Translations under genes and position numbers: made by a program
NCBI GenBank assembly: GCA_963755715.1
Contig: CAVWLW010000034.1
Coordinates: forward strand, 32,001 to 96,000
Length of the DNA stretch: 64,000 nt
Source of the DNA: an uncultured delta proteobacterium
Lineage (GTDB): Bacteria > Desulfobacterota > Binatia > UBA9968
Direction of reading: 5' to 3'
Notes under the pieces: generated by a model
What the model was told of the DNA's origin: nothing
Databases searched by the model: none
What the model saw: only the letters and a program-made list of their open reading frames with translations
Shown: positions 29,970-55,979 of the stretch, piece after piece
How positions within the stretch are numbered: position 1 is the stretch's first letter
How the letters are laid out: each line of letters begins with the position of its first letter

Positions 29970-32023
29970 GCGATCCAGTACTCGGCCTGACCATGCTGGG
30001 GCTCATTGTGGTTGCGATCATGATGGGTTTTCCCACGGCATTTACACTCATGGGCCTCGGCATGATCTTTGGTTACATCGCTTTCTGGGATCCGGCGCAT
30101 CACTGGTGGCAGAGTCGGATCTTCGATCTTATGGTGCAACGGACGTACGGGGTGATGACGAATGACACCCTGCTATCGGTTCCGCTGTTTGTCTTCATGG
30201 GCTACATCATGGAGCGCGCGGCGCTCGTCGACCGCATGTTTCATAGCGTCCAGCTTGCCTTCCGGGGCGTACCCGCCTCGCTCGCTGTGACCACCATGCT
30301 CGTGTCCGCGTTTTGGGGGATCGCCTCCGGCATCGTCGGCGCAGTGGTCGTGCTCATGGGCGTTATCGCGTTCCGACCAATGCTGAATGCCGGCTACGAC
30401 GTCAAGCTCGCTTCGGGAGTCATTACCGCCGGCGGGACGCTGGGCATCCTTATCCCACCCTCGGTGATGATTATCGTCTATGCCGCGGTGTCTGGGCAGT
30501 CGATCGTGAAGCTCTATGCCGCCGCCATGCTGCCGGGCTTCTTTCTCACCTTCCTCTATCTCGTGTACATCCTCGGCTGGGCGATCATCAATCCGAAGAT
30601 CGCGCCCAAGCTGTCGGCCGACCAGTACAGGGTCACGGTCCCGGATTGGATCAAGCGGCTCGAGAGCAAACGCTCACGCAGCATCGTCCCCCGCCTCATC
30701 GCTGCCGCGTTTCGACCAAGCCTGGTGCGTGACACAACGACGCCAGACGGCCAACCGGTAGGCTATGGCCTCATCCTGAACAACGTGCTCGCGCTCCTGG
30801 TGCCGGTGGCGCTCACAGTCGGTACTTATGGTGCAACCTGGTGGTATGTGGTCATCTACAACGCCCCGGCGGCGCAAATTACATCCGTCGCTGCGCCTCT
30901 GGCCGGGCCCGCCGCGCCCACTCAGGCCGCTACGGAGCCGCCGGTCGCGGTGACCGCGCCCACCGCGGAAAAGCCACAGGAACTCGGAGAGGCGGAATCT
31001 GAGGTCCGAGGGACTGAGGCTCCGCGCGCGGCGGATGCGCCGCCCGAGGAAATGACGACGCTCGGGGAGTCGACGACCCAATCAATAGCGGGCAAGGTTC
31101 CGGCGCATTTTTACCAATGGTTTTGGGGGTTGGCGGCGGTCTCCGCGCTCCTGCTTGCCATCTATCTCTGGCGCATGGACGGCGAACAGTTCGAGATCTT
31201 GAAGGAGCTATCGGCATCGGTGGTCCCCCTCGGCGTCCTCACGTTCGTGGTGCTCGCGGTGATCTTGTTCGGCATCTGCACCGCAACCGAGTCGGCGGCT
31301 ATCGGCGCCCTCGGCGCGATGTATCTCGCGGTGATGACGAAATACCTGCGCGAGGTCCTATGGTGGAGTCTCGTGGGCGCGCTTATTGGCGTCGCGCTCG
31401 GCTGGTACGAGGGCGAGGACTTCGCGTCGCTGCTCGTAGCCGCCTCGATCGGAGGGACGCTCGTGGGCACCGTCGTGCCCGGGCTCTGGAATCTCAGAGC
31501 CTCGCCGGAGCTTCGGCAGAACATGAAGGAAGCGACGTTTCTCACGGCCAAAACGACTGCGATGGTGTGCTGGCTGTTCATCGGCTCGGCGCTGTTCTCC
31601 GCCGTGTTCGCGCTGCACGGCGGCCAAGGATTAATCGAACGCTGGGTGCTTGGCATGAACTTGTCGCCGTTGGGATTCTTGTTTATCTCTCAAATGATCA
31701 TTTTCTTGCTTGGTTGGCCGCTCGAATGGACTGAGATCATCGTTATCTTTTGTCCTATTTTCATTCCGCTGCTGAGTCATTTCAAGGTCGATCCGATCCT
31801 GTTCGGCACCATGGTGGCGGTGAATCTCCAGGCAGCGTTTCTGTCGCCGCCAGTGGCGATGTCGGCCTTCTATCTTAAGGGTGTGGCGCCGAAACATGTT
31901 ACGCTGAATCAAATCTTCGCCGGCATGATGCCCTACATGATCATCGTCTGCATCTGCCTCGTGTTCATGTACATCTGGCCGGGCATGACGCTTTGGTTGC
32001 CGGAGTTTTTGTATGGAAATTGA
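29966..32023 (+). CDS. TRAP large permease DctM with internal insertion
   Basis: GFPTAF, LLSVPLFVFMG, GTLGILIPPS, TATESAAIGA, LSPP. Confidence 0.9.
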   Translation: MSDPVLGLTMLGLIVVAIMMGFPTAFTLMGLGMIFGYIAFWDPAHHWWQSRIFDLMVQRTYGVMTNDTLLSVPLFVFMGYIMERAALVDRMFHSVQLAFRGVPASLAVTTMLVSAFWGIASGIVGAVVVLMGVIAFRPMLNAGYDVKLASGVITAGGTLGILIPPSVMIIVYAAVSGQSIVKLYAAAMLPGFFLTFLYLVYILGWAIINPKIAPKLSADQYRVTVPDWIKRLESKRSRSIVPRLIAAAFRPSLVRDTTTPDGQPVGYGLILNNVLALLVPVALTVGTYGATWWYVVIYNAPAAQITSVAAPLAGPAAPTQAATEPPVAVTAPTAEKPQELGEAESEVRGTEAPRAADAPPEEMTTLGESTTQSIAGKVPAHFYQWFWGLAAVSALLLAIYLWRMDGEQFEILKELSASVVPLGVLTFVVLAVILFGICTATESAAIGALGAMYLAVMTKYLREVLWWSLVGALIGVALGWYEGEDFASLLVAASIGGTLVGTVVPGLWNLRASPELRQNMKEATFLTAKTTAMVCWLFIGSALFSAVFALHGGQGLIERWVLGMNLSPLGFLFISQMIIFLLGWPLEWTEIIVIFCPIFIPLLSHFKVDPILFGTMVAVNLQAAFLSPPVAMSAFYLKGVAPKHVTLNQIFAGMMPYMIIVCICLVFMYIWPGMTLWLPEFLYGN

Positions 32024-52622: not shown

Positions 52623-53360
52623 TTACAGTCGTTGCAACAACCAGTTGGGCGTGAAGCGCAGCACGTAGGCATTGAGCAGCGTCATGTAGTCGGCAATTAA
52701 AAGAATGCCGACGATGATCAAGAGAACGCCTCCGACCACATGGATGGTTTGAATATAATGACGCAGCCGTTGTGAAAACTGAAAGAAAGAATCGATCGCC
52801 AGCGCGCTCAAAAAAAACGGCAGAGCCAGGCCAGCCGCATAGCTTGTCAGTAACAGCGTGCCGCGGCCCACTTCACCGGCGGTGCTTGCCAGAGCCAGCG
52901 TGGCTCCCAGGATCGGTCCTACGCAAGGTGTCCAAGCCACGGCAAAAGTGATGCCGACAAGAATAGAACCGAGATAGCCCGCCGGTTTGTCCTTGAGATT
53001 GAACTGTAAGTATCGATCGAGCACAGCGATCTTGAATAGGCCGACGAGATAGAGCCCAACCAGCAGGATAAACACGCCGCCGAGTATGCGAATCGCGTTG
53101 CGATAATCCAGGAAGAGACCGCCGAGAAAACTCGCGGAAGCGCCGAGCGAGATAAAGACTAACGAAAAGCCGATAATAAATGCTGCCGAGTTCAAAATCA
53201 CGCGCCAGCGAACCCGCGCGCGCGCTTCTTCGCTGCGCATTTCATCGAGAGAAACACCCGACACAAACGAAAGATAAGATGGAATCAGGGGCAGGACACA
53301 GGGCGAGAGGAACGAGAAAACTCCGGCCGCGAAAGCAACGAAAATGTTGACGTCGGTCAT
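52623..53360 (-). CDS. ccdA: Cytochrome c biogenesis protein CcdA
   Basis: SFLSPCVLPLIP and WTPCVGPILG. Confidence 0.92.
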   Translation of the reverse strand: MTDVNIFVAFAAGVFSFLSPCVLPLIPSYLSFVSGVSLDEMRSEEARARVRWRVILNSAAFIIGFSLVFISLGASASFLGGLFLDYRNAIRILGGVFILLVGLYLVGLFKIAVLDRYLQFNLKDKPAGYLGSILVGITFAVAWTPCVGPILGATLALASTAGEVGRGTLLLTSYAAGLALPFFLSALAIDSFFQFSQRLRHYIQTIHVVGGVLLIIVGILLIADYMTLLNAYVLRFTPNWLLQRL

Positions 53361-53923
53361 CTCTTGCCGTCAGTAAGATCTTTAATGAGCTTGCGCGCGC
53401 CATTGCCGTACCATTCTGCCGGCCCCCAACCGCGCGCCAATCCTTCGCCGTTCGGACCGATGAGATAAGTCGCCGGCAACCCCCAAGCGCCGTAGAGGCT
53501 GCCCACTTGGGCTTCGGGGTCGAGGGCGATCGGATAGGTTATTTTAAGCTCCTTGACGAAGTCGACCGCGTCTTGTTTACGGTCTTTCACCGCCACGGCT
53601 AAGACGACAAAGTTTTTTTGCTTGTACTCCTGGTACAACTTTTCCATGGCCGGCATCTCTTCCCGGCACGGCACGCACCAACTCGCCCAGAAATTTAACA
53701 GCACGACTTTGCCGCGGAAGTCCTTTAAAGAGATCTTTTTGCCGTCGGGCGTGGTTAGATTGAACTCTGGGGTCGGCGCGGTGTCCTTCATCGGCTGAAG
53801 AATCGGCACCGCTTTTTTGTAGTCGACTTTCGTTTGGCTCCATGCCGGAGCAAAACTTAGAACGATTGAGCTTCCAAAAAAGACAAATACGCGCAGGAAA
53901 TCGCCGGTGATTTGCGTTTTCAT
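53357..53923 (-). CDS. TlpA/ResA family thiol-disulfide reductase
   Basis: Signal peptide, [24 protein letters not shown]; overlaps ccdA start. Confidence 0.9.
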
Positions 53924-54084
53924 ACAGGGTTTAACTCTAACCAACAGGCCGAGCCGACGCAATACTCGTCCCGACGCCGAATTCAGGCGCCCGGCAAAGA
54001 GAAGCTAGGAAAAAAATCGTGCTGCTGTTTACATGCGGGATGGATTTAATTTCGTGTCGAACGAATTTGAATCTAACGACGGCC

Positions 54085-54126
54085 AAAAACACAAGGCCCT
54101 CCAAGTTGTCACTGGAGGGCTCTGTG
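54085..54126 (-). terminator. Intrinsic terminator of the poly-Lys sORF transcript
   Basis: Minus strand: CACAGAGCCCTCCA-GTGACAACT-TGGAGGGCCTTGTG-TTTTT. Confidence 0.7.
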
Positions 54127-54207
54127 TATTAGGCAACCAGAACGGTTACCTTGTTGCCTGAGAGTCAGGAGGGTTTAAATCACCACCACAACCCCACAAC
54201 TCCGTAT

Positions 54208-54258
54208 TTACTTCTTTTTCTTTTTGGCTTTCTTCTTGGCTTTCTTTTTAGCAGCCAT
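54208..54258 (-). CDS. 16-aa poly-lysine small protein MAAKKKAKKKAKKKKK
   Basis: ATG GCT GCT AAA AAG AAA GCC AAG AAG AAA GCC AAA AAG AAA AAG AAG TAA, preceded by SD AAAAGGAGGT-GCTT; promoter upstream and terminator downstream. Confidence 0.75.
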   Translation of the reverse strand: MAAKKKAKKKAKKKKK

Positions 54259-54371
54259 AAGCACCTCCTTTTAGGATTCCACGGGCGGGCTTTTCGATTG
54301 ACAGGCGTTGAAAATTGACTCAGGCAAGAGAAACGAAACTAAAAACCCTCCCATATTTTGTAGGTGATCCA

Positions 54372-54401
54372 ATTATTAGGACACAACAGATTGTATGTCA
54401 A
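54372..54401 (-). promoter_or_regulatory. sigma70-type promoter for the poly-Lys sORF
   Basis: TTGACA (54401-54396), 17-18 nt spacer, TAATAAT; AT-rich UP-like tract upstream. Confidence 0.6.
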
Positions 54402-54965
54402 GAAAAAAATATCATTTTACAAAATATTTTGACGCGTGCGCTGAAACTTTGCCGACGAGCAATTCAAACTGTGATCAAGCAATGACGGCGAACTAAGAGA
54501 TAGCGATTAACAGCAGAGCGTTTTATTGCGACGTTTGATGTCAAGGATCAAAAAAGCATGTTGAGGAAAATTTTTGGGCGTCTAAGCGAGGGGCGATCAG
54601 AATCGCAGCTGCACAGTCAAAGCACAGTGGCGCGGAGATTACCGCGCGAACGCTCCGACTTCACTCAATCCGTAGCGCCTTGATCATTTTGGGGCAAGTG
54701 GGGGATGCAGGCGGCGAGCTTTTGCCGCAATAGGCGCTTGCGGGCGCGCTCCGATGGCGCGGATAAACCCATCGCGGAGTAAATGCGCGGCGGCGGCACA
54801 GATAGGCGGCGCTGATGACCACGAAGGCAGGTGATCTATCGGAAGGAGATTTAGGGCTTTGCCAAGAACTGTGCGCTCGACCATACCGCAAGTGGTAATG
54901 ATACGAGCGGCTTGTCGTCAAGATCTGGGGAGCAGGGTTTGTCAGGAAAACATTCTGCGTGGGTG

Positions 54966-55979
54966 CTATCGCGAGGCCGTGGCACGTGCCAATTCTTCAT
55001 CGATGATCCGCGCGAAAGCTTCGAGGGGTTGAGCTCCCGTCAAGGGCCGTCCGTTGATGAAAAACGCCGGCGTGCCAGTGACTCCAAGACGCGTACCCTC
55101 GTCAATATCTTTTTGTAATGCGGTTTTGTGCACGCCGCCTGAGAGGCAGTCGTCAAACTTTTTGACATCGATCCCGGCTTGCGCGGCATAGCGCTTCAAA
55201 TCATCGGGAGCCAATTTAGGCGACTCGGTAAAGAGCGTGTCGTAATATTCCCAAAACTTTCCCTGATCGTTCGCGCAACGCGCCGCCTCGGCGGCCCGCC
55301 GCGCCTGGGGATGGATACTTTCAAGCGGAAAGTCGCGATACACGAGTTTGACTTTGCCTGCATATTTCTCAAGTAATTGCATTAAGGTCGGGTGTGCTCG
55401 CTTGCAGAACGGGCATTCAAAGTCAGAAAATTCGACTATTGTAACTGGAGAGTTCGCCGGTCCTCTAAAAGGTGCTCCGTCCACCGATACTTCGACCCGC
55501 GCCGCCGCCGGCGGCTTTAAGTTGTCTACTATCTTGGCTTGTGAGCGGAGAGATGTGAGAAATTCTTCGCGCTTAGCCGCCAACTTTTGGTTTTGTAAGA
55601 AAGCTCTGATCTGCTCCCGAACCTGAGCCTGCTCTCCTTTGATCTGCGCTTTCTTTTCCTGATAGAATTTTTCGATCTCCTGTTCCGTGACCAGGCCGAC
55701 TTTCGAGGTGATCTCAGCATCCAGTAAAGCCGGCACCGTGAGCTTGCGTTTGGCTGCTTCCTTTTCCAAAAGCTTCTCATTGATCAGCGCGTCGAGTTTC
55801 TGGCGTTTTAGATTGTAAATCTGCTCTTCGAGCTTGCTTAGCTGGCCCGCGAGACTTTTTTCGACTTCTTCCGAAGTGATCGCGGCCCCGTCCACCTCAG
55901 CCAGCGCATCGCCCGCCCCGTGAGCGTTTGTTGGAAAGCTGGATCCCAGCAAGAAAAGTAAAATCCAAAAAATCATCAT
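54966..55979 (-). CDS. DsbA-family oxidoreductase with SurA-like N-terminal domain
   Basis: Signal peptide, EFSDFECPFC, YRDFPL, GVTGTPAFFING. Confidence 0.9.
   Translation of the reverse strand: MMIFWILLFLLGSSFPTNAHGAGDALAEVDGAAITSEEVEKSLAGQLSKLEEQIYNLKRQKLDALINEKLLEKEAAKRKLTVPALLDAEITSKVGLVTEQEIEKFYQEKKAQIKGEQAQVREQIRAFLQNQKLAAKREEFLTSLRSQAKIVDNLKPPAAARVEVSVDGAPFRGPANSPVTIVEFSDFECPFCKRAHPTLMQLLEKYAGKVKLVYRDFPLESIHPQARRAAEAARCANDQGKFWEYYDTLFTESPKLAPDDLKRYAAQAGIDVKKFDDCLSGGVHKTALQKDIDEGTRLGVTGTPAFFINGRPLTGAQPLEAFARIIDEELARATASR

Follow-up and report, generated by a model that had tools for sequence, protein, structure and literature searches.

A conserved poly-lysine microprotein gene of Binatia with predicted long-range pairing between its untranslated regions

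The window analyzed here is the whole 64,000-nucleotide (nt) stretch at positions 32,001 to 96,000 of contig CAVWLW010000034.1, from an uncultured delta proteobacterium of the class Binatia; coordinates count from its first letter. A whole small transcription unit lies on its minus strand within 54440-54085, with a poly-lysine open reading frame (ORF) between 5' and 3' untranslated regions (UTRs) of ~110 nt each. Two blocks of the 5'UTR (A and B) are complementary to two blocks of the 3'UTR (A' and B'), and a sequence-only reading of the window had proposed that these crossed pairings enclose the ORF as a pseudoknot or switch. Comparison of homologues points to a conserved microprotein gene whose message would be closed by B:B', with A:A' as a less certain addition. 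The features of the unit are as follows.

54372-54440, minus strand: promoter, with an A/T-rich upstream tract, a -35 box TTGACA (54401-54396), an 18-nt spacer and a -10 box AATAAT (54377-54372)
54085-54368, minus strand: predicted transcript of ~285 nt, its start inferred from the -10 box and its end from the terminator T-run
54343-54352, minus strand: A, GGGAGGGUUU, Shine-Dalgarno (SD)-like block in the 5'UTR, GGAGGG in 58/58 homologues
54316-54327, minus strand: B, UUGCCUGAG(UCA), 5' strand of the loop-closing helix, GCCUGAG in 58/58 homologues; in the RNAalifold consensus structure and covarying in distant homologues
54281-54294, minus strand: A*, AAAAGCCCGCCCGU, alternative local partner of A in the 5'UTR, paired with A in the single-sequence minimum free energy (MFE) structure
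54262-54271, minus strand: SD, AAAGGAGGUG, fully complementary over 10 nt to the 3' end of the genome's own 16S rRNA
54208-54258, minus strand: ORF encoding MAAKKKAKKKAKKKKK, 16 amino acids (aa); ATG 54258-54256, TAA 54210-54208
54179-54200, minus strand: G/U-rich tract GUUGUGGGGUUGUGGUGGUGAU after the stop codon, conserved in composition
54168-54176, minus strand: A', AAACCCUCC, anti-SD-like block in the 3'UTR, CCCUCC in 57/58 homologues
54154-54167, minus strand: B', UGACUCUCAGGCAA, 3' strand of the loop-closing helix with core CUCAGGCAA at 54162-54154, CUCAGGC in 58/58 homologues
54131-54151, minus strand: hairpin H3, AGGUAACC[GUUCU]GGUUGCCU, with both-sided changes at 6/8 pairs
54086-54120, minus strand: intrinsic terminator, a stem (54120-54096) of 9 pairs, 6 of them G-C, followed by a T-run

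The poly-lysine ORF and its transcription unit

The ORF was compared across the 58 homologues of the alignment described below. It is intact in all of them at 12-19 aa and starts 3 nt past AAGGAGGUR in 56. The 21 ORFs with 16 aa have 1, 1 and 13 variable sites at codon positions 1, 2 and 3, and length differences among the homologues are all in frame. Because variation is nearly confined to third codon positions and every indel keeps the frame, the ORF is read as translated. The comparison identifies it, by its pattern of variation, as a conserved gene under clear coding selection, a point that the sequence-only reading had missed. The 19 distinct peptides of this set are composed of nearly nothing besides lysine and alanine (294 residues: 190 K, 70 A, 19 M, 6 T, 6 R, 2 V and 1 P). 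The peptide has 16 aa in the window and 12-40 aa in its relatives, with about 65% Lys. An SD followed by a Lys-rich ORF of 16-40 aa is present in 40/40 distant loci within the class and 3/3 outside it, for example MAAKKKASKSKAKKKAPAKKGGAKKKK and MATKKAKKPAKKKAKPAKKKAKKPAAKKKAKKTTKKKK, and the longer homologues contain AKKK and AKKKAPAKK repeats.

Protein databases were searched with these longer homologues, the 16-aa peptide itself being too short for Pfam and NCBIfam. Four homologues of 26-40 aa matched 0 families in either database. The four peptides had no exact match among about 15 billion proteins, and a homology search was likewise without a match. Atlas and homology searches with the longer homologues returned nothing beyond unnamed clusters of 39-43 aa; in the nearest Atlas cluster with a Pfam family, 23% of the members carry HC2 (score 0.88), which serves as a lead only. 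The gene escapes gene callers. A 55-aa Leu/Phe-rich ORF runs antisense to the poly-Lys ORF (54151-54318, plus strand) as an automatic mirror of the AAG/AAA codons. This hydrophobic ORF was rejected as a candidate gene: at 0-80 aa, and fewer than 20 aa in 25/58 homologues, it is not conserved.

The promoter scores 11/12 consensus matches and is almost invariant in a 38-locus alignment; no other promoter-like site occurs on either strand of 53300-55100. The SD core AAGGAGGU is found in 58/58 homologues, and the genome's own 16S 3' end reads CACCUCCUUU. The unit carries expression signals that count among the strongest in the window. H3 carries both-sided changes at 6/8 pairs, with 97.0% of cells paired and the loop GUUCU in 55/58 homologues, and the terminator carries them at 6/9 pairs. 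Conservation along the locus begins at the promoter and ceases just past the terminator. These results define an independent, conserved transcription unit with its own hairpin H3 and terminator, and neither its independence, its strong promoter nor its wide distribution had figured in the sequence-only reading.

Homologues and the loop-closing helix

The unit is present once, at full length, in its own genome. BLAST recovered it at full length (E <= 3e-17) from 32/36 other genomes of the same family and 5/5 of a second family; the four own-family genomes with no strong match are 60-92% complete. A third family of this order (f3, genus g9) gave no BLAST match in 19 genomes. Scanning species-representative genomes with a pattern yielded 60 loci, which an nhmmer profile divided into 56 true homologues and 4 chance hits. 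The homologue records are metagenome-assembled genomes (MAGs), mostly labelled Candidatus Binatia or "Deltaproteobacteria". Removal of duplicates left 61 loci, and removal of the truncated L032, L063 and L101 left the 58-row alignment used throughout. Rows L016 and L038 come from genomes flagged unpublished, and no conclusion rests on them. Conservation of A', B' and the H3 loop is circular in 21 of the 58 rows because these elements were part of the pattern that found them; the other 37 rows came from plain BLAST with no motif selection and show the same blocks.

A covariance model was built from this alignment with B:B', H3 and the terminator. It matched 75/151 genomes sampled from the class at E <= 0.01 (for instance 17/17 in family f7, 15/17 in f116, 8/18 in f6 and 0/8 in f3) and also 4 genomes outside the class at E <= 1e-5. 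The unit is therefore widespread in Binatia and present in some genomes outside the class. An exact ORF-anchored pattern run across the phylum had hit 2/401 genomes; its strictness made it miss the distant forms recovered afterwards with the covariance model. Since the f3 genomes are mostly complete and more distant families carry the element, the f3 result suggests that this family lost the unit or diverged strongly. Of the 64 class-level genomes with matches beyond the two close families, 40 make up the distant set, together with 3 loci from outside the class. All 43 loci share a common plan: a conserved TTGAC-type promoter, a helix 5' strand 27-53 nt before a strong SD, a helix 3' strand 40-90 nt past the stop, and then a hairpin and a terminator.

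Some records need separate mention. L047, L081 and L095, titled Chloroflexota, Verrucomicrobiia and Eisenbacteria, hold true copies of the unit; those in L047 and L081 are identical to copies from the genus of the window, and all three are likely mislabelled or mis-binned MAGs. The unit occurs in genome G003 on two contigs with identical scores (C25:188369-188705 and C26:27874-28210), as a real duplication or an assembly duplicate.

A repeat search of the window sequence reproduced the complementarities that had been reported. The exact arms of B:B' (54319-54327 and 54154-54162) are 9 nt long and 100% complementary, and a 12-base pair (bp) version requires a 2-nt bulge. The exact arms of A:A' (54343-54351 and 54168-54176) are also 9 nt long and 100% complementary. 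Among 2000 dinucleotide-preserving shuffles of this one sequence, Watson-Crick 9-mers at least 50 nt apart averaged 0.21, with P(>=2) = 0.047. Chance in a single sequence is thus not negligible, so conservation carries the argument.

The B:B' pairing is retained where its sequence changes. It occupies 97.1% of cells in the 58 close homologues, where 7 of 9 pairs are invariant and one pair is changed on both sides, in 3 sequences. The 40 distant homologues within the class show both-sided changes at 6/9 pairs with 99.4% of cells paired, in an alignment that was fitted to the model and hence leans towards structure. The same helix is spelled with other letters in raw distant sequences, with no model fitting: CUCGCCUGAG/CUCAGGCGAG, UUCUCGCCUGGGAG/UUCUCAGGCGAGA, UCUCGCCC-U-GGGAC/GUCCCGGGCGAGA (U:A to C:G), CUUGCCUG/CAGGCAAG, GAGUUCGAGACGGGGGA/UCCCCCGUCUCGAACUC (17 bp), a 19-bp form and GGUCGCCCGGGGUAAUC/GAUUACCCCGGGCGACC (17 bp). 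The closing helix measures 10-19 bp in the distant homologues; its sequence differs and its pairing is kept. These compensatory changes mark B:B', as far as sequence comparison can, as a genuine long-range helix around the poly-Lys ORF, and it very probably forms in vivo. Loop closure is an ancestral, class-wide feature.

In L161-L163, the loci outside the class, the 3' half of the helix 5' strand (GGGGUAAC or GGGGUAAUC) can also pair locally within the 5'UTR with GUUACCUC, a nearby copy of the same helix partner. This choice between local and long-range pairing looks like a designed switch.

The crossed blocks A and A'

The four arms read A, B, A', B' on the minus strand, an order that is crossed, with A' and B' 5 nt apart and A and B ~15-20 nt apart. 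A:A' is paired in 92.9% of cells of the 58-row alignment, and U:A pairs flanking the SD-like core are also kept, for example in 56/58 sequences at one position. Each block has a further potential partner. The pairing of A with A* (GCCCRCCC, 54294-54281) is available in 86.5% and 70.1% of cells in its two halves, and the complementarity of A' to the SD, also part of the sequence-only reading, spans 7 pairs with 94.1% of cells paired. B' had been credited with an alternative partner, GUUGCCU, which holds for the window; AGGCAAC:GUUGCCU is fully pairable in only 11/58 homologues, and the competing H3 is so in 45/58. An unbiased mutual-information scan of all column pairs in the 58-row alignment gave top-ranked base-pair covariation only at H3 and the terminator and no further helix.

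Folding was performed with 57 sequences, L011 being skipped for want of the exact A' motif. A:A' extends over 9-14 bp in most of them (mean 9.9) and over 6-7 bp in six. The spacers are held in 57/57 sequences, at 4-6 nt between A' and B' and 19-25 nt between A and B. The unconstrained MFE structure contains A:A' in 27/57 sequences, B:B' in 16 and neither in 14, and the mean cost of forcing a helix is 1.7 kcal/mol for A:A' and 2.6 kcal/mol for B:B'. The two long-range helices are thus predicted to be near-equivalent alternatives in nested folding. Without a pseudoknot penalty, the sum of B:B' with A and A' free (-83.2) and the A:A' duplex (-15.3) is lower than the MFE (-94.1). For a pseudoknot, a link of 4-6 nt is a tight fit over a helix of 9 bp. 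These values are equally compatible with a pseudoknot and with a bistable switch.

A CCCUCC block before B' is absent from the distant forms, whose 5'UTR opens instead with a G/U-rich tract. As no counterpart of A:A' was found in the distant families, the second helix, if it exists, is an addition in two families and not ancestral. Of the covariation that had been anticipated among collected homologues, B:B' shows both-sided changes and A:A' shows none. We judge it slightly more probable that A:A' forms in some state than that it never does, and divide this expectation roughly evenly between formation together with B:B' (pseudoknot) and alternation with it (switch). Pseudoknot, switch and independent SD/anti-SD-like constraints on A and A' are indistinguishable.

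Explanations, known systems and neighbouring genes

The explanation we favor, with somewhat better than even confidence, is that a gene so far without annotation, transcribed on its own and highly expressed, gives rise to this mRNA for a polycationic Lys/Ala microprotein, and that the message is closed into a loop by B:B' and elaborated by A/A' in one lineage. B in the 5'UTR would pair with B' in the 3'UTR and enclose the ribosome-binding site and the ORF in a loop of ~150 nt. Closure may stabilize an otherwise unstructured purine-rich message, or it may regulate translation. In two families a second pair of blocks was added: A, the SD-like GGGAGGG on the 5' side of B, and A', the anti-SD-like CCCUCCUU that immediately precedes B'. 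A' could pair with A or with the true SD. A three-way competition among A, SD and A' would then set SD accessibility, and A:A' would form as a pseudoknot atop B:B' or alternate with it.

Several observations weigh against this account. A:A' lacks compensatory change, with both-sided changes at 0/9 pairs in invariant blocks, and because A fits A* and A' fits the SD, both may be conserved for other reasons. The state that combines B:B' with SD:A' lies a mean 8 kcal/mol above the MFE, which leaves masking of the SD by A' thermodynamically unfavored. Beyond the two close families, the segments upstream of B and B' show no excess of complementarity over shuffled sequence (1/39 loci at p <= 0.05); this second-helix test used distant rows only, as close-family rows often yielded A:A' as the chosen helix, and the chosen "B" was not the homologous helix in L132, L144, L149, L154 and L161. 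B and B' vary less across four families than a helix alone would require, and letters so highly conserved suggest an additional sequence-specific partner, of which none was found. Finally, the RNA evidence consists of assembled contigs, which are blind to ends, strand and level. Six RNA-library runs from 5 studies contain 59-71% of the sampled words of the stretch, and soil RNA contigs from 4 runs of 4 studies cover 54095-54353, 54128-54346, 54134-54347 and 54022-54314. The contigs reach nothing upstream of 54353 and, in 3/4 runs, nothing downstream of 54095; they are unusable for transcript ends. They hint at an abundant, discrete RNA with some read-through, and since RNA libraries may contain DNA they weakly indicate that the unit is expressed.

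The absence of both-sided changes from the invariant A:A' blocks bears most directly on an alternative in which A and A' are not partners, a separate contact accounts for the conservation of each, and B:B' alone is structural. In that case A would serve near the 5' end as an SD-like site for ribosome standby or stabilization, of the STAB-SD kind, A' as an SD mask or a protein site, and the crossed complementarity a by-product of their resemblance to an SD/anti-SD pair. Both blocks do match SD/anti-SD logic and the genome's own 16S 3' end, and a second crossed helix is not seen in other families. We consider this alternative unlikely: the spacings of A' from B' and of A from B are held in every sequence folded, A:A' reaches 9-14 bp in most sequences and enters the MFE of nearly half (27/57), and the flanking U:A pairs are kept past the SD-like core.

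The dual-function RNA that the sequence-only reading had entertained would be a dual-function or mainly regulatory small RNA. The ~285-nt RNA or a 3' fragment would act in trans on the ribosome-binding sites of other mRNAs through a single-stranded anti-SD-like seed spanning A' and B' (AAACCCUCCUUACUCUCAGGC), and A and B would be internal decoys masking that seed. The UTR blocks are indeed better conserved than the freely varying H3 and terminator helices, A' is complementary to SD sequences, and the RNA assembles even from very small metatranscriptomes. Distant homologues that lack A' yet keep the ORF, B:B' and the terminator speak against a trans-acting seed, as does the clear coding selection on the ORF. 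A contiguous target GCCUGAG-N2-8-GGAGG is present at 4 sites in the genome, including the antisense strand of this element, and the reversed control at 3. This possibility appears rather improbable.

A bolder extension of the favored account is a speculation to which we give similarly little credence. The unit would belong to a clade-wide and hitherto unseen class of "closed-loop" bacterial microprotein mRNAs, its product would be a ribosome- or nucleoid-bound polycation (like bS22 or eL41) that binds its own closing helix as feedback, and the lineage form would be a pseudoknot whose second stem mimics SD and anti-SD. If this were true, the ORF would be topologically enclosed in a knot, to be resolved by every ribosome that initiates.

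Much less survives of the idea that the ORF is a Lys-codon leader peptide of a transcription attenuator controlling the downstream tlpA-like and ccdA genes. The ORF is rich in Lys codons and is followed by a terminator, a TlpA-like redoxin gene lies downstream in 48/61 unique loci of the close families and ccdA in 41/61, and one RNA contig extends ~60 nt beyond the terminator. The stop codon, however, precedes the terminator by ~90 nt with the independently covarying H3 between them, and there is no conserved antiterminator. Reuse of CCCTCC/GGAGGG by the terminator stem, noted in the sequence-only reading, is true of the window and does not generalize: the arms match A/A' through CCCUCC in only 36/58 homologues and through GGAGGG in only 26/58. 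The downstream gene differs in distant families, where its truncated pieces show an alpha/beta-hydrolase-like N terminus below the Pfam cut-off, so the unit is not the leader of one particular operon. Thiol-disulfide genes are not known to be linked to lysine supply, and this too counts against an attenuator, which we regard as very improbable.

A type I toxin-antitoxin-like locus, in which 5'-3' fold-back silences the mRNA of a toxic peptide, shares the long-range 5'UTR-3'UTR pairing around a very short ORF and is scarcely credible given peptides that are Lys/Ala almost throughout and lack a hydrophobic stretch (19 distinct sequences), a single copy in the genome, no promoter-like site on the opposite (plus) strand of 53300-55100, an antisense ORF that is not conserved, and strong, conserved expression signals ill-suited to a silenced toxin. 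A 3'UTR that mimics 16S h44/h45 and the anti-SD was tried and rejected: the longest word in common between the window copy (L001) and its own 16S has 9 nt, a length reached by 347/500 shuffles, and a 12-mer shared with 16S occurs in only 2/58 sequences.

Comparison with known systems gives the same picture. The toxin mRNAs of hok/Sok, TisB and AapA1 reportedly combine a very short ORF with long-range 5'-3' pairing. The present unit resembles them in having its very short ORF within such pairing, and in the alternative SD-like/anti-SD-like pairings that are possible. It differs in encoding a soluble polycation instead of a membrane toxin, in being a single-copy, strongly promoted locus, and in the position of its 5' partner, which is set back from the 5' end. 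Trimming from the 3' end could not free the 3' partner, since another hairpin and the terminator follow it. No sign of an antisense antitoxin was found, neither a plus-strand promoter-like site in 53300-55100 nor a conserved block outside the sense unit. Of a fold-back over the SD, the long-range pairing is present and the SD:A' state is the one that lies 8 kcal/mol above the MFE on average. The likeness to hok and aapA drawn in the sequence-only reading therefore stops short of membership, and its comparison with tmRNA fails because ARAGORN reports 0 tRNA or tmRNA genes in 53800-54700. The expectation of a structured RNA matching no known family was borne out by Rfam, with 0 matches at the gathering score across the whole window and 0 at E <= 10 on 54000-54450. 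The unit is not a type I toxin, a tmRNA or an attenuator.

SD-like sequences near the 5' end reportedly act as 5' mRNA stabilizers (STAB-SD), as in the cryIIIA leader. Block A is similar in lying near the 5' end, far from the start codon, and differs in having a matching anti-SD-like counterpart in cis, within the 3'UTR; A may have a stabilizing role. The composition of the peptide is like that of the histone H1-like bacterial proteins Hc1/Hc2 with their Lys/Ala/Pro-rich tails. The peptide is 5-10 times shorter and has no Pfam match, and the likeness is one of composition only. Small basic ribosomal proteins (bS22, bL37 and bTHX) are the subject of PMC10081302, PMC10085706, PMC10618245 and PMC12123416. 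The likeness lies in a peptide that is tiny and Lys/Arg-rich, in expression signals as strong as those of ribosomal proteins and in a lineage-restricted distribution; no sequence relationship was detected with NCBIfam or Pfam (0 families for the four longer homologues).

We rate the unit as a new microprotein and mRNA-structure family. At the level of titles and abstracts, the literature on Binatia small RNA, on lysine-rich small proteins and on Binatota metatranscriptomes yielded no description of the unit. The conserved promoter, SD, UTR architecture and terminator, the strong expression signals and the presence in soil RNA libraries mark its importance to these bacteria, an uncultured lineage distributed globally in soil and sediment. 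It offers a clean natural case of bacterial 5'UTR-3'UTR closure around a minimal ORF, diverse enough for covariation tests, and adds an extreme member to the small basic proteins. If the competition of A, A' and the SD is real, the unit would be a compact model for the tuning of translation by cis-encoded anti-SD mimics.

No supported partner was found for the G/U-rich tract at 54179-54200, and its pairing with the transcript 5' end was rejected, with only 57.4% of cells paired. This tract of GUGG repeats follows the stop codon in the family of the window and stands at the extreme 5' end of the transcript in f7 and f116 homologues (L121-L149); the module seems to have moved or arisen twice between them. 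A further motif, GCUAGGCACGUA, is conserved ~25-45 nt after the stop in the f7 homologues inspected among L136-L149 (as GAUAGGCACGUA in L148 and GCUAGGCACAUA in L146) and is absent from the family of the window; no pairing partner for it was found.

The gene upstream of the unit is variable, a DsbA-like gene in 5/61 loci. In the window, 52623-55979 (minus strand) forms a thiol-disulfide neighbourhood, with a DsbA-like protein bearing a SurA-like N-domain upstream of the unit and a TlpA-like redoxin and CcdA (DsbD_TM) downstream.

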